Source: Escherichia coli (lineage in GTDB: Bacteria > Pseudomonadota > Gammaproteobacteria > Enterobacterales > Enterobacteriaceae). Taken from it: a stretch of DNA of 64,000 bases. The DNA is taken from NCBI RefSeq assembly GCF_024502345.1, contig NZ_JALDNN010000001.1; one strand, written 5' to 3'. Below the pieces are notes generated by a model that saw nothing but the letters and a program-made list of their open reading frames with translations, was not told where the DNA came from and made no database searches. Position 1 is the stretch's first letter. The number at the start of each line of letters is the position of its first letter. Both the position numbers and the translations under genes were made by a program. Shown piece after piece: positions 50,522 to 64,000 of the stretch.

Positions 50522-51517
50522 ATGAACGATAACGTTTTGCTCATAGGAGCTTCCGGATTCGTAGGAACCCGACTACTTGAAACGGCAATTGCTGACTTTA
50601 ATATCAAGAACCTGGACAAACAGCAGAGCCACTTTTATCCAGAAATCACACAGATTGGTGATGTTCGTGATCAACAGGCACTCGACCAGGCGTTAGCCGG
50701 TTTTGACACTGTTGTACTACTGGCAGCGGAACACCGCGATGACGTCAGCCCTACTTCTCTCTATTATGATGTCAACGTTCAGGGTACCCGCAATGTGCTG
50801 GCGGCCATGGAAAAAAATGGCGTTAAAAATATCATCTTTACCAGTTCCGTTGCTGTTTATGGTTTGAACAAACACAACCCTGACGAAAACCATCCACACG
50901 ATCCTTTCAACCACTACGGCAAAAGTAAGTGGCAGGCAGAGGAAGTGCTGCGTGAATGGTATAACAAAGCACCAACAGAACGTTCATTAACCATCATCCG
51001 TCCTACCGTTATCTTCGGTGAACGGAACCGCGGTAACGTCTATAACTTGCTGAAACAGATCGCTGGCGGCAAGTTTATGATGGTGGGCGCAGGGACTAAC
51101 TATAAGTCCATGGCTTATGTTGGAAACATTGTTGAGTTTATCAAGTACAAACTGAAGAATGTTGCCGCAGGTTATGAGGTTTATAACTACGTTGATAAGC
51201 CAGACCTGAACATGAACCAGTTGGTTGCTGAAGTTGAACAAAGCCTGAACAAAAAGATCCCTTCTATGCACTTGCCTTACCCACTAGGAATGCTGGGTGG
51301 ATATTGCTTTGATATCCTGAGCAAAATTACGGGCAAAAAATACGCTGTCAGCTCTGTGCGCGTGAAAAAATTTTGCGCAACAACACAGTTTGACGCAACG
51401 AAAGTGCATTCTTCAGGTTTTGTGGCACCGTATACGCTGTCGCAAGGTCTGGATCGAACTCTGCAGTATGAATTCGTCCATGCCAAAAAAGACGACATAA
51501 CGTTTGTTTCTGAGTAA
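50522..51517 (+). CDS. gnu: NAD-dependent epimerase of the Z3206 (Gnu/Gne) type; GlcNAc-P-P-Und 4-epimerase candidate
   Basis: 331-aa ORF with Rossmann motif LLIGASGFVGTRLL, between wcaM and galF where K-12 has no gene, as I recall. Confidence 0.7.
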   Translation: MNDNVLLIGASGFVGTRLLETAIADFNIKNLDKQQSHFYPEITQIGDVRDQQALDQALAGFDTVVLLAAEHRDDVSPTSLYYDVNVQGTRNVLAAMEKNGVKNIIFTSSVAVYGLNKHNPDENHPHDPFNHYGKSKWQAEEVLREWYNKAPTERSLTIIRPTVIFGERNRGNVYNLLKQIAGGKFMMVGAGTNYKSMAYVGNIVEFIKYKLKNVAAGYEVYNYVDKPDLNMNQLVAEVEQSLNKKIPSMHLPYPLGMLGGYCFDILSKITGKKYAVSSVRVKKFCATTQFDATKVHSSGFVAPYTLSQGLDRTLQYEFVHAKKDDITFVSE

Positions 51518-54361: not shown

Positions 54362-55546
54362 GTGATCATGGTTAATGCTAAAAATTTTGTATTAATTATT
54401 TTTGATGTAATATGTCTTTTTTTTAATGTTTTTATTTATGTCCCACGTCTAATTATTGGTGTTTTAACAGTAGATAAAACATTGATTATTACATTTCCCT
54501 TGATGTTATCAGTGTTGGCATATAATTTTATTCCACCAGAAACATATGATCTTTACAGACATTATGAAAACTATCAAAATTTTTTGAATAATAATGAAGT
54601 AAGTTTTATCAGGGATTTTTTTCTTTATTTTTTATTTACCGTAGGGAGGTTTTTTGATTTAAATAATGGATTTATAGCATTTGTATCTTGTTATATCCTC
54701 TATTTTTATTGGTTAAAAATATTATACATTAACTTTGATTATAAAGCCAAGAAGAAAAATTTCCCGTTATACTTTCTTATATTTTTTATTACTCCACCTC
54801 TTGTTATATATACAGGCGTTCGATTTTCCACAGGGCTTATATTAACACTGTATGGGATTGTAAACTGGATTCAATTACGGAATGTAAAACTTGGTATAGT
54901 ATATATTATTTGCGGGTTAACAGCCCATTTTTCAATGGCATTGATTGCTTTAATATTTATTTTCACATCATATTTCAATAATATCTTTTCAAATAAATAT
55001 TTAAGGGTTGGGTTCGTATTTTCTGCATTACTTGTAATCTCATTTAATGAACAGTTAGTAAGGTTTTTGACAACAGTAATTGAGTTCATTAATCAGTTAT
55101 TTGATTGGAACTTTATTAGTATCGATACATATATTACTGGTAAATGGGGGCTGGAGAGGGCGCAGGAATTGAATTCAACCGGACAATTAGTATTAGGTAT
55201 ACGTAATTATGGTATGCTCTTTCTAATATTGCTATTTTGCCCACTAATATCTTTTAATAAAAATAAATATACGAACTTTTATTATGTAATGTGTGCTGTT
55301 ACAATATTAGTTTTCCCTTTTACAGCAGTATTTGATAGATATGGAACATTTTTAATTTTTTTTATTGTATACTATCTTAGTACTCTTCAGAAAAAAACTA
55401 ACATTGAAATAATATATTTTTTAACGTTGATTGTATATTTGATTTTCTTTAGAGCAATAGACATCAAAGATAATATTTCCGTATACACTGAAAGCTATAG
55501 TAATATATTGAATCTTTCTTTAATTAAAGTACTGTTAGGAATATAA
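54362..55546 (+). CDS. wzy: O-antigen polymerase Wzy (putative)
   Basis: 394-aa highly hydrophobic multi-TM ORF next to wzx; start may be ATG at 54368. Confidence 0.65.
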   Translation: MIMVNAKNFVLIIFDVICLFFNVFIYVPRLIIGVLTVDKTLIITFPLMLSVLAYNFIPPETYDLYRHYENYQNFLNNNEVSFIRDFFLYFLFTVGRFFDLNNGFIAFVSCYILYFYWLKILYINFDYKAKKKNFPLYFLIFFITPPLVIYTGVRFSTGLILTLYGIVNWIQLRNVKLGIVYIICGLTAHFSMALIALIFIFTSYFNNIFSNKYLRVGFVFSALLVISFNEQLVRFLTTVIEFINQLFDWNFISIDTYITGKWGLERAQELNSTGQLVLGIRNYGMLFLILLFCPLISFNKNKYTNFYYVMCAVTILVFPFTAVFDRYGTFLIFFIVYYLSTLQKKTNIEIIYFLTLIVYLIFFRAIDIKDNISVYTESYSNILNLSLIKVLLGI

Positions 55547-56526
55547 TGCGTAAATATGAAAATAATATTGTTATAAGTGTGATTATTCCAACATATAACA
55601 ATGATAAAACAATCATAGAGGCTATTCAATCTATAGTAAATGTTGAGATGCCTGTGAAATATGAGGTGCTAGTAATAGACGATGGTTCGGTAGATCAGAC
55701 ATCAAATTTAATTGCAGAATATATAAGTCAAAGAAAAGATAATACTATTAAATATTTTTATCAAAAAAACAGTGGTGTAAGCGCTGCGAGAAACGTGGGA
55801 ATAAAAAATGCATTAGGGAAATATGTTCTATTTTTAGACGCAGATGATACATATAGTGAACATGTGTTAAAAGAAATAGATGAAATATTAAGTACTAACA
55901 ATGATATATATGTGTTTTCATATGAAAAACTGAATAATAAAAAGGCTATAATATCAAATAAAAAAAATATTATAACTCATTATAATAGTAAATATGATTT
56001 TTTAAACTCCTATATCTCAGGTGAACTTTTCGGGTGCGTTAGTGTTTGCTCTTGCATTTTTAGTAAAGAATCATTAATTAGCAATAATATTTTTTACGAT
56101 AGTAAAATTGCTTATGGGGAAGATCAATGGTTTTTGATAAATGCTCTCAAGGTTTGCAATGATGTAGAGTTCAGATTAGAACTAAATTTACTGAATTATA
56201 CTTATAATACGGAGTCGGCGACTAATCGTTTCAACCTAAGACGTTTTGACGCGATTACAATGCTAGAAAGAATCAATCAAGAAGCATTTAAGGTTAATCA
56301 AGATATAATTAATGCAAGAATTAATAAAGAATTGGTAAATATAGCAACAATATATACGAAATTCAATTCGTTACAGAAATCAATAATGTTTGTTAATAAC
56401 GTTATACTCCCAAAAATAAAAACGGATAGTGACAAAAGACTATATATGTTCAAAGATATGGTTTTCACTAGATTACCATATTTATATATAATACTTTATA
56501 AACTCTATATTAAGCTATTTAAGTAA
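55546..56526 (+). CDS. Glycosyltransferase family 2
   Basis: 326-aa ORF, ISVIIPTYNN...DDGSVD...LDADD (GT-A, DXD). Confidence 0.8.
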   Translation: MRKYENNIVISVIIPTYNNDKTIIEAIQSIVNVEMPVKYEVLVIDDGSVDQTSNLIAEYISQRKDNTIKYFYQKNSGVSAARNVGIKNALGKYVLFLDADDTYSEHVLKEIDEILSTNNDIYVFSYEKLNNKKAIISNKKNIITHYNSKYDFLNSYISGELFGCVSVCSCIFSKESLISNNIFYDSKIAYGEDQWFLINALKVCNDVEFRLELNLLNYTYNTESATNRFNLRRFDAITMLERINQEAFKVNQDIINARINKELVNIATIYTKFNSLQKSIMFVNNVILPKIKTDSDKRLYMFKDMVFTRLPYLYIILYKLYIKLFK

Positions 56527-56532
56527 ACTAAT

Positions 56533-57714
56533 ATGAATATTCTTATAATTATTCCTAAGTTATGTAACGGTGGGATTGAAAAAATTGCATCAAACTTTTC
56601 TCAATACTTACCAGAAAGATATAATCAATTTGTATATTCAATCATGTCACAAGACTCTTCTTATGATTTTGCGGTAAAGCCCATTATATTAAATAAAAGT
56701 TTAGGTAAAACCTTTATTGGAAAATTGATTACATTTTTCTACAGGCTTCATTTGGCACGTAAAATTATTAGAGAAAATAACATAGATATATGCATTAGTT
56801 TTGGGGAGAGATGTAATATTATAAATATTCTATCTATGGGGAAAACAAAAAAAATCATTACTATACATAGTCAGCTATCTATTGAAAATAAAACAAAAGG
56901 ATTATATGGGAAAGTTACAACACTATTTTCAAAATTGCTTTATAAAAATGCGGATGCTACTGTAGCCGTATCAGAAATAGTGAAGAAGGATGCGTGCGGT
57001 TTATTAAATTTAGATGCGAATAATGTAGAGCTAATTTATAATGGACACGATATTGATTATATCAAAGATAAGTCTACTGATTATAAAGAATTTGATACAC
57101 CTGTGATCGACTTCGTGTCTGTAGGGCGAATTACATATGCTAAAGGGCATTATCATCTATTGAGAAGTCTTGCCATAGTAAAGGAGACGTATCCTAATGT
57201 AATACTATATATTGTTGGCACGTATGAAAAAGATAATTTAAAAAGCATAATTGATCATTTAATTGAGAAATACGATTTATATGATAATGTGATTTTTACC
57301 GGCTTTAGTGACAATCCATATCCTTACATAAAATCAGCAAAGGCTCTTATACTTAGTTCAATTTTTGAAGGTTTTCCAGGCGTTGTTATCGAGAGTATTG
57401 CGCTTGGAACTCCTGTCATAGCGACAGATTGTGGCGGTGCTTCAGAAGTTTTAAAAAGTCCAGATGCCAAAATAAAGAATAATACGGGAGATGTGGAAAT
57501 TACTAAATTAGGAGTACTGTTACCAAAATTCGATGGGATTTATGATATTAATTTGGATTTTTCGCCCACAGAAAAAAAGATGGCGCAAGTTATGAATGAT
57601 ATTATATCAGGGAAGCTGAAATTTAATGAAGACTTTTTAATTACAAAAGCAAACGAATATGATATAGATTCTATGATGAAAAAATATACGGACTTAATAG
57701 AGAAAATAAAATAA
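56533..57714 (+). CDS. Glycosyltransferase family 4 (GT-B)
   Basis: 393-aa ORF with C-terminal EGFPGVVIESIALGTPVIATDCGG motif. Confidence 0.8.
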   Translation: MNILIIIPKLCNGGIEKIASNFSQYLPERYNQFVYSIMSQDSSYDFAVKPIILNKSLGKTFIGKLITFFYRLHLARKIIRENNIDICISFGERCNIINILSMGKTKKIITIHSQLSIENKTKGLYGKVTTLFSKLLYKNADATVAVSEIVKKDACGLLNLDANNVELIYNGHDIDYIKDKSTDYKEFDTPVIDFVSVGRITYAKGHYHLLRSLAIVKETYPNVILYIVGTYEKDNLKSIIDHLIEKYDLYDNVIFTGFSDNPYPYIKSAKALILSSIFEGFPGVVIESIALGTPVIATDCGGASEVLKSPDAKIKNNTGDVEITKLGVLLPKFDGIYDINLDFSPTEKKMAQVMNDIISGKLKFNEDFLITKANEYDIDSMMKKYTDLIEKIK

Positions 57715-58685
57715 TGAAAGAAGCTACTACCTCATATAAATCAATTCATACTATATTAGATTATTTTGGTTGGTCTCATGAAGATTATTGGCATATCAAC
57801 TATAAAGTAAATTATGATTTTTCAAAATTTAATTATTATTGGGATTTGACAAAAAAGTATAATTGGTTTAGTGGACCTTTTGATCAAAATAATATTCCTT
57901 TATATCTTGGCACTGATTCAAAACTGCATTACTCGCCAATTTTTTTAGGGCATTATGCTCTTGGAGCATATCAAGAATATCTATTATCAAATGATAAAAA
58001 AGCATATGACGATTTTATAAGAATAGCGGATTGGTTTGTTGAAAATACAACGACATATAAAAAATGTTCTGGAATATGGATAAATACATACCCAATGTCA
58101 ACTTTTAACTTAAAAGGTAAATGGCAATCGTGTTTAGCCCAGGCAAAAGGTATATCTGTCCTATGTAGAGCTTATTATCTTACGCAAAATTTAAAATATT
58201 TGAAGGTAGCTCTTGACGCATTTGAATCTTTCAAAATATATAAAGAAGAAGGTGGAGTTAAGGTAAGGCATAAAAACGTATTCTTTTGGGAGGAATATCC
58301 AACTATAACCAATTCTATCGTATTGAATGGACATATTTTTGCAGTTTGGGCATTGTACGATTTATCTTTTGTATTAAAAGATAAGAACGAATTTAAGCAA
58401 CAATGGACGGATATTTACAGTTATTATAAAAAATCACTGATTATATTAAAAGAGAATTATAAGTTATGGGATACGCGCTATTGGACTAGATATGATATAT
58501 GGGATAAACATTTTAATGTTTCAAGTTTGTTTTATCATAATCTCCATATTAAACAATTCTATATATTGGCTGTTTTGGGAGATGATGATGATTTCAAGAA
58601 AATTGCTAATAAATGGGCTGGTAAATTAAAAAATCCGCTTTTCAGAATGTATGCGCTTATAAAGAAAGTAGTTTTTAGGTTATGA
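57714..58685 (+). CDS. D-glucuronyl C5-epimerase-like protein (C-terminal domain family), putative hexuronate epimerase
   Basis: 323-aa soluble ORF; AQAKGISVLCRAYYLT and FWEEYPTITNSIVLNGHIFAVWALYDL resemble, from memory, conserved blocks of the glucuronyl C5-epimerase C-terminal domain. Confidence 0.5.
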   Translation: MKEATTSYKSIHTILDYFGWSHEDYWHINYKVNYDFSKFNYYWDLTKKYNWFSGPFDQNNIPLYLGTDSKLHYSPIFLGHYALGAYQEYLLSNDKKAYDDFIRIADWFVENTTTYKKCSGIWINTYPMSTFNLKGKWQSCLAQAKGISVLCRAYYLTQNLKYLKVALDAFESFKIYKEEGGVKVRHKNVFFWEEYPTITNSIVLNGHIFAVWALYDLSFVLKDKNEFKQQWTDIYSYYKKSLIILKENYKLWDTRYWTRYDIWDKHFNVSSLFYHNLHIKQFYILAVLGDDDDFKKIANKWAGKLKNPLFRMYALIKKVVFRL

Positions 58686-59563
58686 TTATGAATGTTATTG
58701 ATAAAATTATTATGGGTTTGAAAAGTATATATTTAAGCTTTCTTTATACAATATATAATTTATTTCTTAATGAAAATAGATTCGAAGAGACAAATGAAGT
58801 ACATGTTGTTGTAAGTTTGACGTGTTTTCCTGGACGTATAAAAAAAGTATATCTTACTTTGGAGTCAATTATGGCTCAACAATATAATAACTTTAAAGTG
58901 GTATTGTACTTGTCTCATGAAGAGTTTCCAAAGGGTTTAGAGGATTTACCTCGTAGTTTAATACGATTACATAAAAGAGGTGTCGATATTAATTTTACGT
59001 GTGAAAATATTCGATCTTATAAGAAGTTACATTATGCGCTGAGTGATTTCCCGGAACTACCTGTAATAACAGCTGATGATGATGTCTTATATCCCTCGCG
59101 ATGGGTAAATGATTTTATGGAGTCACATAAGCTTTTTCATGATGATATATTATTTGCGAGGGGGCATCAGATAACATTTGACCGAAATGGAAATGTTAAA
59201 AAATATATCTCTTTCGGAAAACCAGCTGGATATTCAGCATCAAGTTTATATATTCCTACAGGAGTAAGTGGAATTCTATATCCGCCAGGATGTTTTTTTC
59301 AAGATGTGCAGAATAAAGATATTTTTATGAAGTTGGCACCTAACGCAGATGATATATGGTATAAAGTAATGACTTTGTTAAACGGTCGAAAATCCAGATT
59401 GATCTATAAAAAGCCAATTCATTATCCACCTATCCTTGGCACACAGAAGATCTCCTTGCGTAAACAAAACTTATCGAAACAACATTTAAATAATGATACA
59501 CAATTATTAAATTTAATTGATTATTATTCTATCGAATTAGCTGATTTTAAGAAAAAGGAATAG
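58682..59563 (+). CDS. Putative glycosyltransferase, family unassigned
   Basis: 293-aa ORF with N-terminal hydrophobic segment and DXD-like ITADDDV motif; 4-bp overlap with the upstream gene. Confidence 0.45.
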   Translation: MIMNVIDKIIMGLKSIYLSFLYTIYNLFLNENRFEETNEVHVVVSLTCFPGRIKKVYLTLESIMAQQYNNFKVVLYLSHEEFPKGLEDLPRSLIRLHKRGVDINFTCENIRSYKKLHYALSDFPELPVITADDDVLYPSRWVNDFMESHKLFHDDILFARGHQITFDRNGNVKKYISFGKPAGYSASSLYIPTGVSGILYPPGCFFQDVQNKDIFMKLAPNADDIWYKVMTLLNGRKSRLIYKKPIHYPPILGTQKISLRKQNLSKQHLNNDTQLLNLIDYYSIELADFKKKE

Positions 59564-59568
59564 CTCCT

Positions 59569-60309
59569 ATGGAATTAGTTTCAATTATAATGCCTTGTTT
59601 TAATAATGAAGCAACTATAAAAGAAAGTATTAACAGCGTACTATCTCAAAGTTATAAATGCTGGGAGTTAATTATTATCAATGACAACTCAACAGATGAT
59701 TCACAAAATATTATTAACGACTATGTGAATAGTGATGAAAGAATAAAACTGATTACTAATGAAAAAAATATCGGAGCTGGAGGTAGTAGAAATAAAGGAA
59801 TTGAAATTGCAAATGGAAGATTCATTGCTTTTTTAGATGCAGATGATGTTTGGTTGCCAGAAAAACTTGCAAAACAAATAAAGTTTATGAGAGATGGTAA
59901 TTATGCACTGACATATAGTTATTATCAAAAGTTTGATTCAACTGGATTGGGAGCGATCGTCCGGTCACCTGCTACAACAACCTATAGGAAATTGTTATAC
60001 AGTAATGTTATTGGATGTCTAACAGGAATGTATGATACTGATTTTTTGGGTAAATGCTATATGCCTTTAATTCGTAAACGACAAGATATGGGGCTTTGGT
60101 TGTCAATATTGAAAAAGTGTAATAAAGCATATTGCTTACCTGAAGTTTTGGCATATTATAGAATTGACTCAGGAATGACAAAAAATAAACTTGATGCGGC
60201 AAAATATCAGTGGCGATTTTATAGGGACGTAACTAAACTTAATTTGATTCAATCAAGTTGGTATTTTGTTTGGTATTCAGTTTTAGGTTTGGTAAAGTAC
60301 AAAAAATAA
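59569..60309 (+). CDS. Glycosyltransferase family 2
   Basis: 246-aa ORF, VSIIMPCFNN...NDNSTDDS...LDADD. Confidence 0.8.
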   Translation: MELVSIIMPCFNNEATIKESINSVLSQSYKCWELIIINDNSTDDSQNIINDYVNSDERIKLITNEKNIGAGGSRNKGIEIANGRFIAFLDADDVWLPEKLAKQIKFMRDGNYALTYSYYQKFDSTGLGAIVRSPATTTYRKLLYSNVIGCLTGMYDTDFLGKCYMPLIRKRQDMGLWLSILKKCNKAYCLPEVLAYYRIDSGMTKNKLDAAKYQWRFYRDVTKLNLIQSSWYFVWYSVLGLVKYKK

Positions 60310-60318
60310 TAAGGAGGA

Positions 60319-61332
60319 GTGATGACAATTTTAGTCACTGGTGGTGCTGGATATATTGGCAGTCACACTGTTATTGAATTACAGAAAAATGGTTTTGACG
60401 TGGTAATAGTAGATAATTTTTGTAATTCATCGCCATCGGTTTTAAAAAGAATTGAATTAATTACAGGGAAGGAAATTAAATGTTACGATATTGATCTTCT
60501 GGATTTTAATTCTTTGCAGAAGGTTTTTGTAACTAATAATATTAACTCTGTGATTCATTTTGCATCTTTAAAATCAGTTTCTGAATCACTAATCAAACCA
60601 ACTGAATATTATCATAATAATTTGAGTGGTTGCCTCAATGTCTTGAAAATAATGAAAGAACATAACGTGAATAATTTCATTTTCAGTTCTTCGGCAACTG
60701 TATATGGCAGTAATAACAACAATCCTGTTTCAGAATCTTCATCAGTCGGCACCGCAACAAATCCTTATGGAAAATCCAAGATTTTTTTAGAGCAAATATT
60801 GTCTGATTGCTGTAAATCAAATCCTAATTTAAATGTAACTTGCCTGAGGTATTTCAATCCGGTTGGTGCACATTCTTCAGGTTTGATAGGAGAATCTCCG
60901 AATGGTGTTCCTGCCAATTTAGTTCCATATTTAACTCAGGTTGCTTTAGGTAAATTGCCCGTATTACATATATATGGTAATGACTATGATACCAAGGATG
61001 GGACGGGAGTAAGAGATTTTATTCATGTTACGGATTTAGCTAATGGACACATAGCTGCGCTGAAAAAAATAAATGGTCATAATGGTTTTAAAGTTTATAA
61101 TCTTGGTACTGGGCGAGGTTATAGTGTGTTAGAAGTCGTTAGATGTTTTGAGGCTATTACAGGAAAAAGTATTCCAATCGAATTTTCGCCTCGCAGAGAA
61201 GGTGATATCGCTGAAAGTTGGGCAAATGTTTCCGCAGCAAATTATGAGTTAGAGTGGTTCGCTAAAAAGACATTAACTGATATGTTACGAGATGCATGGA
61301 AATGGCAAACGTTAAATCCAAATGGATTATAA
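60319..61332 (+). CDS. UDP-hexose 4-epimerase, GalE family (UDP-Glc/UDP-GlcNAc 4-epimerase)
   Basis: 337-aa ORF, MTILVTGGAGYIGSHTVIELQKNGFDVVIVDNFCNS, closely GalE-like; last gene of the O-antigen cluster. Confidence 0.85.
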   Translation: MMTILVTGGAGYIGSHTVIELQKNGFDVVIVDNFCNSSPSVLKRIELITGKEIKCYDIDLLDFNSLQKVFVTNNINSVIHFASLKSVSESLIKPTEYYHNNLSGCLNVLKIMKEHNVNNFIFSSSATVYGSNNNNPVSESSSVGTATNPYGKSKIFLEQILSDCCKSNPNLNVTCLRYFNPVGAHSSGLIGESPNGVPANLVPYLTQVALGKLPVLHIYGNDYDTKDGTGVRDFIHVTDLANGHIAALKKINGHNGFKVYNLGTGRGYSVLEVVRCFEAITGKSIPIEFSPRREGDIAESWANVSAANYELEWFAKKTLTDMLRDAWKWQTLNPNGL

Positions 61333-63072: not shown

Positions 63073-64000
63073 ATGAAAATAACAATTTCAGGAACAGGTT
63101 ATGTTGGTCTTTCAAATGGTATTCTGATTGCGCAAAATCACGAAGTGGTTGCACTGGATATCGTTCAGGCCAAAGTGGACATGCTTAACAAGAAGCAGTC
63201 ACCGATTGTTGATAAGGAGATTGAAGAGTATCTGGCGACTAAAGATCTCAATTTCCGCGCTACGACAGATAAGTATGACGCGTATAAAAATGCCGATTAC
63301 GTTATTATTGCCACGCCTACCGATTATGACCCGAAAACAAATTATTTTAATACCTCAAGCGTGGAAGCGGTCATTCGCGATGTGACAGAAATTAATCCCA
63401 ACGCGGTAATGGTGATTAAATCTACAATTCCGGTAGGTTTCACCAAATCAATTAAAGAACGTCTGGGTATCGATAATCTTATTTTCTCTCCGGAATTTCT
63501 CCGTGAAGGTAAAGCCCTTTACGATAATCTCCATCCTTCACGTATTGTCATTGGTGAGCGTTCAGAACGCGCAGAACGTTTTGCTGCGTTGTTACAGGAA
63601 GGCGCGATTAAGCAAAATATCCCGACCCTGTTTACCGACTCCACTGAAGCAGAAGCGATTAAACTTTTCGCTAATACCTATCTGGCGATGCGCGTAGCAT
63701 ACTTTAATGAACTGGATAGCTATGCAGAAAGTTTAGGTCTGAATACTCGCCAGATTATCGAAGGCGTTTGTCTCGATCCGCGTATTGGCAACCATTACAA
63801 CAATCCGTCGTTTGGATATGGTGGTTATTGTCTGCCGAAAGATACCAAGCAGTTACTGGCGAACTACCAGTCTGTGCCGAATAACCTGATTTCGGCAATT
63901 GTCGATGCTAACCGCACACGTAAAGACTTTATTGCCGATGCCATTTTGTCACGCAAACCGCAAGTGGTGGGTATTTATCGTCTGATTATGAAGAGCGGTT
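63073..64000 (+). CDS. ugd: UDP-glucose 6-dehydrogenase, 5' part (continues beyond window)
   Basis: ATG at 63073; translation [59 protein letters not shown]...; not in the ORF track because no stop lies within the window. Confidence 0.93.

Follow-up and report, generated by a model that had tools for sequence, protein, structure and literature searches.

A 64,000-nucleotide stretch of Escherichia coli DNA (contig NZ_JALDNN010000001.1 of NCBI RefSeq assembly GCF_024502345.1; referred to below as the window) carries the O-antigen cluster of E. coli O112ab/Shigella boydii 15, in which the wfeH gene encodes a protein labelled "hypothetical protein" in RefSeq. Analysis of its fold, its relatives, and its gene context indicated that WfeH is almost certainly a glycosyltransferase of the GT-A fold, and profile comparisons pointed to GT45 as very probably the closest characterised family. 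The reading that we favour, with some reserve, is that WfeH is an active, DXD metal-dependent Leloir transferase related to GT45 and one of the four enzymes that extend the WecA-primed, undecaprenyl-pyrophosphate (Und-PP)-linked O112ab unit. It probably acts at the uronic-acid step, where it would add an alpha-linked N-acetylhexosamine (HexNAc) to glucuronic acid (GlcA) or iduronic acid (IdoA), this being the donor, acceptor, and stereochemistry that we infer. WfeH had already been named, and what is added here is a fold and a nearest family for a protein that RefSeq lists as hypothetical.

The wfeH gene and the fold of its product

The gene and the segments of its product that are discussed below are as follows:

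58682..59563, + strand: wfeH, encoding a predicted 293-aa GT-A fold glycosyltransferase (ORF list, exact UniRef match, AlphaFold model, fold matches)
58682..58685, + strand: ATGA overlap of the wfeH start codon with the stop codon of the C5-epimerase gene (read from the sequence)
58694..58765, + strand: N-terminal helix, residues 5–28, apparently amphipathic (DSSP on the model; hydropathy)
58826..58837, + strand: F-P-G-R motif, residues 49–52, with invariant R52, aligned with S/T-x-P-x-R of KfiA and PmHS2
59075..59083, + strand: DDD (D132–D134), DXD metal/nucleotide-sugar motif, invariant in 74 sequences
59348..59353, + strand: D223–D224 (ADDIW), invariant acidic pair (family, GT45-like, and GT2 alignments)
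59399..59461, + strand: residues 240–260, containing residues specific to the epimerase-linked subclade (subclade-versus-rest comparison)

The 293-aa open reading frame (ORF) reported in a sequence-only reading of the window is present on the + strand and is a real gene. The identical protein was found in the public databases by exact-sequence look-up as WfeH (UniRef B5L406_ECOLX), and a chance ORF is implausible because stop codons are frequent in DNA of 26–32% G+C and because homologues were found with E-values down to 3e-101. The wfe gene series is the nomenclature for O-unit transferases, thus the depositors evidently counted WfeH as a putative transferase; the literature search found no relevant open-access paper naming it. 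The start codon is ambiguous. In the UniProt version the ATG at 58682–58684 overlaps the TGA of the C5-epimerase gene (58683–58685), while RefSeq (WP_126502564.1) starts at 58688 and gives a 291-aa product. An AGG (58676–58678) precedes the latter start by 9 nt, a better spacing than that of the start at 58682. Of the translational coupling claimed for the two genes the ATGA overlap was verified, and coupling itself, which is compatible with either start, is presumed from the arrangement of the codons.

WfeH was modelled by AlphaFold with high reliability (predicted local distance difference test, pLDDT, 95.2) as a single Rossmann-like alpha/beta/alpha nucleotide-sugar-binding domain, in which the DXD metal-binding motif is located at the end of the central strand, and structure comparison returned matches to the GT-A glycosyltransferase fold. 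The absence of a recognisable glycosyltransferase signature, remarked on previously, was borne out by the model libraries, as no Pfam match was obtained at E ≤ 1 and the NCBIfam matches were noise only. The first database search detected 122 relatives, nearly all of them labelled "hypothetical". Twelve positions, R52, S112, Y113, K115, D132, D133, D134, Y137, G194, D223, D224, and L259, are invariant in the family alignment of 74 sequences. The ITADDDV motif singled out by the sequence-only reading corresponds to residues 129–135 and includes three of these, D132–D134. The catalytic residues of WfeH were mapped on the basis of alignments, in which its DDDVLYP segment is matched with DDDIIYP of KfiA and PmHS2, two enzymes that need their DXD motifs in order to function (PMC3418500). 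D224 is aligned with an invariant Asp of the GT45-like set described below and also with the Asp found at the catalytic-base position of GT2 enzymes.

The same reading had placed a hydrophobic anchor at the N-terminus. A helix was indeed found at residues 5–28, but the anchor did not hold: the maximal 19-residue Kyte–Doolittle hydropathy of WfeH is 1.26, below the threshold of 1.6 for a membrane span, and a transmembrane anchor was rejected for this reason. Among 72 family members the median of this value was 0.83, and seven reached at least 1.6. Judged from the model, the segment looks like an amphipathic helix and not a clear membrane span.

Relationship of WfeH to the GT45 and GT2 families

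When the 74-sequence profile was compared with solved structures by hmmsearch, only glycosyltransferases were matched. The best scores were obtained with KfiA of E. coli K5 (5z8b, E = 3.6e-9) and with residues 294–525 of PmHS2 (8vh7/8viw, E = 8e-9), and the match to the GT2 enzyme SpsA was far weaker (E = 0.0066). KfiA and the C-terminal domain of PmHS1/PmHS2, the heparosan synthases of Pasteurella multocida, are taken to make up CAZy family GT45. These retaining alpha-1,4-GlcNAc transferases, which help to build heparosan, the precursor of heparin, are the nearest characterised relatives of WfeH, even though the relationship is remote (14–19% identity). Two reference sets were then set against the WfeH family. 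The GT45-like set was built from relatives of the PmHS2 C-terminal domain (12 matches, ten sequences aligned), and the GT2 profile was made from 14 sequences of neighbouring GT2 genes of the examined loci, replacing single-sequence controls that had been uninformative. In the hhalign comparison the WfeH family was matched to the GT45-like alignment with a probability of 98.9% (E = 3.1e-17), while the values for the GT2 profile were 76.8% and E = 2.1e-5. Motif by motif, WfeH shares with GT45 the S/T-x-P-x-R (R52), Q66, K115, DDDxxYP (D132–P138), GH, TG, and D224 elements. The DNGKF motif, which is replaced by RSYKK in WfeH, and the D of Q-x-D are not retained. The WfeH family has no model of its own in either domain library. 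Weak matches to PF00535 (GT2) in 44 of the 74 members, together with matches to PF09258 (GT64) in two of the 74, make it a part of the GT2-like GT-A superfamily, where GT45 is apparently its nearest characterised neighbour. WfeH itself has no match to PF09258. The earlier suggestion of a glycosyltransferase from an uncommon family thus agrees with the GT-A fold, the invariant DXD, and the absence of a Pfam or NCBIfam model of its own, and the sensitive profile search that had been proposed as a check, now carried out, led to the remote GT45 relationship and to no clear assignment to a well-characterised family.

Several differences separate WfeH from these relatives. Besides the RSYKK substitution, WfeH has an extra N-terminal helix of amphipathic appearance that GT45 proteins do not possess, and it belongs to a Wzx/Wzy O-unit pathway, in which a lipid-linked oligosaccharide is built, whereas KfiA and PmHS act in capsule polymerisation. 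KfiA-type proteins form a tiny group, the 12 matches mentioned above, as opposed to the thousands of clusters of the WfeH family. The heparan sulfate alpha-N-acetylglucosamine (alpha-GlcNAc) transferases of the EXT/EXTL type (GT64: EXTL2, EXTL3, and EXT2) resemble WfeH at the fold level only. In comparison with the inverting GT2/PF00535 transferases, such as SpsA, TarP, WfeF, and WfeI, WfeH falls below any Pfam reporting threshold and its profile match is weaker.

If the likeness to KfiA reflected nothing but the shared GT-A nucleotide-binding core, WfeH could be an inverting, GT2-like beta-glycosyltransferase, transferring for example beta-HexNAc. We regard this as unlikely, since the GT45-like match is better by 12 orders of magnitude in E-value and reaches into the C-terminal, acceptor-side half of the protein (217 versus 173 columns), WfeH gives no match to PF00535 at E ≤ 1, staying under the gathering threshold of that model, and the cluster already contains two canonical GT2 enzymes for beta linkages.

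The wider family was found to be large. A profile search at E ≤ 1e-5 collected 2,007 clusters of 90% identity, and when 50%-identity representatives were searched exhaustively with HMMER, 4,574 proteins passed E ≤ 1e-30 and 10,925 passed E ≤ 1e-3. Lengths of 500–1,700 aa are common among them. In the multidomain members that were sampled, the WfeH-type domain follows a canonical GT2 domain, as in the layout of PmHS, or a GT8 domain, occurs in tandem, or precedes an FkbM methyltransferase or a TupA-like ATP-grasp domain, which suggests roles in polymerases and chain terminators. The WfeH-type domain is a widely used polysaccharide-synthesis domain without a model of its own, and the size of a family not covered by Pfam and NCBIfam explains the recurrent "hypothetical protein" calls in polysaccharide loci.

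Some of these observations weigh against the function that we favour for WfeH. None of the 2,007 relatives is specifically named or characterised, their names being "hypothetical" or generic. The diversity of the fusions and the existence of members without an epimerase gene mean that a uronic-acid acceptor is not to be generalised from the family. Some multidomain members exceed the PF00535 threshold, and owing to the weak matches of the 44 relatives to this model an inverting mechanism has to be reckoned with. Finally, the conserved Asp 223/224 pair does not discriminate between the mechanisms, because inverting and retaining GT-A enzymes both use this position.

The O112ab cluster and the linkage of wfeH to the C5-epimerase gene

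The 57700..60320 segment, comprising the epimerase gene, wfeH, and wfeI, is 99–100% identical to ten complete genomes, one of which is typed O112ab:H8. The repeat unit of O112ab, identical in S. boydii 15, is a pentasaccharide in which L-IdoA, GlcNAc, and N-acetylgalactosamine (GalNAc) occur (PMC3068255). Among the E. coli O-antigens L-IdoA is unique to O112ab, and the C5-epimerase of the cluster was named Gae in the 2019 review of E. coli O-antigens (PMC7685785); the linkage formed by the O112ab polymerase has been called ambiguous (PMC10920833). The genes follow each other in the order given below, with galF between the first gene and wzx, and with wfeH between gae and wfeI:

50522..51517, + strand: GlcNAc-PP-undecaprenol 4-epimerase gene, upstream of galF
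from 52957: wzx
from 54362: wzy
55546..56526, + strand: wfeF, GT2 glycosyltransferase (exact-sequence look-up), kept only in the most similar clusters
56533..57714, + strand: GT4 glycosyltransferase, best model PglJ-like, presumably wfeG (family models, conservation)
57714..58685, + strand: gae, D-glucuronyl C5-epimerase-like gene (PF06662, E = 9e-36)
59569..60309, + strand: wfeI, small TuaG-like GT2 (family models, exact-sequence look-up)
60319..61332, + strand: galE/gne-type 4-epimerase (annotation)
from 61418: gnd
63073..64000, + strand: ugd, UDP-glucose (uridine diphosphate-glucose) 6-dehydrogenase, for the supply of UDP-GlcA; continues past the end of the window

The cluster contains exactly four candidate transferases, namely WfeF, the GT4 enzyme, WfeH, and WfeI. 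As the repeat unit consists of five sugars, four transferases are needed after WecA. Without WfeH only three would be available for the pentasaccharide, which is the simplest argument for WfeH being catalytic. The GlcNAc-PP-undecaprenol 4-epimerase gene suggests that GalNAc is the first sugar of the O-unit, and the galE/gne-type 4-epimerase likely supplies UDP-GalNAc. Between 53000 and 61000 the G+C content of the O-unit genes is 26–32%, compared with 44–49% in the flanking galF and gnd regions. Low G+C is the usual sign of lateral acquisition of O-unit genes, and it agrees with the occurrence of the closest gae-wfeH relatives in Providencia, Vibrio, and Photobacterium.

The gene context of wfeH homologues was compared in eight loci at 44% identity or above, that is, the window and seven others (44–55%) from Providencia rettgeri, Vibrio parahaemolyticus (two), Photobacterium kishitanii, and three public sequencing-run assemblies, in one of which the homologue is a protein also recorded from Vibrio crassostreae. 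A PF06662 epimerase gene is located immediately upstream of the wfeH homologue in all eight, and the junctions in the seven other loci range from a 4-base overlap to a 2-base gap. A GT2 gene of approximately 250 codons is likewise present in 8/8 loci, a GT4 gene directly precedes the epimerase gene in seven, and ugd was found inside the examined stretches of six, including the window. When the proteins of the cluster were compared with four loci by tblastn, the GT4 enzyme, Gae, WfeH, and WfeI proved to be co-conserved (32–61% identity). Variation was seen in wzx, wzy, WfeF, and the genes for sugar precursors. In four more distant loci (32–40% identity), from a metagenome contig, Vibrio pelagius, a Clostridium species, and Xaviernesmea oryzae, the epimerase gene was found in none. 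After the V. pelagius homologue come a 252-aa GT2 and ugd, and two ugd genes are present in the Clostridium locus. The family is therefore free-standing, and only the subclade of WfeH is coupled to the epimerase.

The residues specific to this subclade are clustered at positions 240–260 (H247, P250, L252, S258, and R260), where the pLDDT of the model is lower. Speculatively, this segment may be a candidate for acceptor recognition. Two of the subclade-specific residues in it are basic and could contact the carboxylate of a uronate.

The constant adjacency of gae and wfeH in the eight loci, along with the frequent presence of ugd in the same clusters, would also be explained if WfeH were a glucuronosyltransferase that uses UDP-GlcA to add the GlcA residue which Gae then converts to IdoA. 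This seems improbable for three reasons. KfiA, the C-terminal domain of PmHS, and EXTL2/3 transfer GlcNAc to GlcA and not GlcA itself; the TuaG-like GT2, which is co-conserved to the same extent, is the more conventional candidate for adding beta-GlcA; and a retaining enzyme would produce alpha-D-GlcA and, after epimerisation, beta-L-IdoA. In known glycans alpha-L-IdoA arises from beta-D-GlcA.

WfeH might also do no catalysis and serve the epimerase as a structural partner or scaffold while retaining the fold of a glycosyltransferase. The tight coupling of the two genes speaks for this, and there is a precedent of a kind in KfiA, without which its partner KfiC is not active (Sugiura 2010, as cited in PMC3418500). 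Docking of the two proteins was modelled by AlphaFold, with Gae joined to WfeH through a 30-residue linker and with the sequences of the eight natural pairs plus 37 unpaired WfeH relatives as input. In the fused Gae-linker-WfeH model both domains are well folded (pLDDT 89.2); the predicted template modelling score (pTM) was 0.66, and the model came without an inter-domain error map. This pTM lies above the value estimated for two independent domains (~0.5) but below that estimated for confident docking (> 0.8), and it is counted neither for nor against a complex. The residues of catalytic type (DDD, R52, S112/Y113/K115, and D223/D224) are invariant in 74 diverse sequences, the family is abundant without the epimerase, and a non-catalytic WfeH would leave three transferases where the five sugars call for four, so that a mere scaffold is highly improbable. 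As to the proposal of the sequence-only reading that the protein might be a partner of the epimerase, the genetic association held in the near loci and disappeared in the distant ones, and the fused model left physical docking at the intermediate score given above.

Several genomes carry altered forms of the cluster. In NZ_LR778150.1 (strain SC492) an extra A in wfeH, at the equivalent of 59483/59484, results in a 268-aa product that has lost the C-terminal helices. PGAP labels this shortened allele 'glycosyltransferase family 2 protein' and the intact one 'hypothetical protein'. The frameshift may be a sequencing error, since gnd is also frameshifted in this assembly. NZ_CP010237.1 (strain S43) has a rearranged cluster with a truncated epimerase gene, an inserted piece of wzy separating this gene from wfeH, and a wfeH that has lost part of its 5′-end and measures 693 bp; this points either to a rough variant or to an artefact of the assembly. 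In NZ_CP142915.1 (strain B19374) galF is followed directly by a 5′-truncated wfeI, galE, and gnd, everything from wzx to wfeH having been lost, and the strain would seem to be an O112ab derivative that makes no O-antigen. Two further genomes match the same query interval (2028–2621) and probably have the same deletion. In one 90%-identity cluster the 323-aa C5-epimerase is found together with 392-aa 'O112ab family O-antigen polymerase' proteins. The two may have been joined through chimeric or rearranged sequences of the S43 kind, and caution is advisable in the use of this cluster.

Proposed step of WfeH in O-unit assembly

GlcA-terminated heparosan is the acceptor of KfiA, an alpha-UDP-GlcNAc transferase (Hodson 2000, as cited in PMC3418500 and PMC2811250), and the substrate of Agl32, an archaeal epimerase of the PF06662 type, is an internal GlcA within a lipid-linked tetrasaccharide (PMC12624080). 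On the pattern of these enzymes, and considering the co-conserved TuaG-like GT2 and ugd, the following steps can be proposed. WfeI, a candidate beta-GlcA transferase that owes this role to its family and context, would add beta-GlcA from the UDP-GlcA supplied by Ugd. WfeH would then put an alpha-linked HexNAc (GalNAc or GlcNAc) on the uronic acid, and Gae would turn the lipid-linked GlcA to L-IdoA, acting immediately ahead of WfeH or immediately behind it. The WfeH step may thereby fix the configuration of IdoA. The individual elements of this proposal are not equally firm: a retaining mechanism appears rather probable, the uronic acid as acceptor is slightly less so, and HexNAc as the donor sugar is an even call.

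The 2019 review assumes a nucleotide-sugar route through UDP-L-IdoA for O112ab, which it states to be without experimental basis (PMC7685785). Our results favour epimerisation by Gae at the glycan level, because the pairing of gae with a transferase gene is strict and because polymers or lipid-linked glycans are the substrates of those PF06662 relatives that have been characterised. The gae-wfeH arrangement is paralleled by the animal Glce (heparan sulfate) and by Agl32 (Halobacterium N-glycosylation), where a PF06662 epimerase likewise stands beside the transferases that build the uronic-acid glycan. A bolder and rather doubtful extension is that gae-wfeH, the TuaG-like GT2 gene, and ugd make up a portable 'iduronic acid cassette' that has spread between the surface-polysaccharide loci of Enterobacterales and Vibrionaceae. 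Such a cassette would be a minimal heparan-type pathway operating on an Und-PP-linked oligosaccharide: addition of beta-GlcA by the GT2, capping with alpha-HexNAc by a KfiA-like retaining enzyme, and conversion of the internal GlcA to IdoA by a Glce-like epimerase.

The assignment of WfeH completes the transferase count for the sole E. coli O-antigen that contains L-iduronic acid, and the gae-wfeH pairing gives a testable order of steps for the incorporation of IdoA in bacteria, on a lipid-linked glycan. If the proposal is true, Gae together with a transferase accepting GlcA or IdoA could be useful for the chemoenzymatic synthesis of IdoA oligosaccharides as heparin or dermatan mimetics. The 10,925 clusters detected at the permissive threshold without a Pfam or NCBIfam model of their own mark a gap in the domain libraries, and should the cassette exist as described, WfeH would become the founding characterised member of a GT45-related family that comprises over 4,500 clusters at 50% identity.

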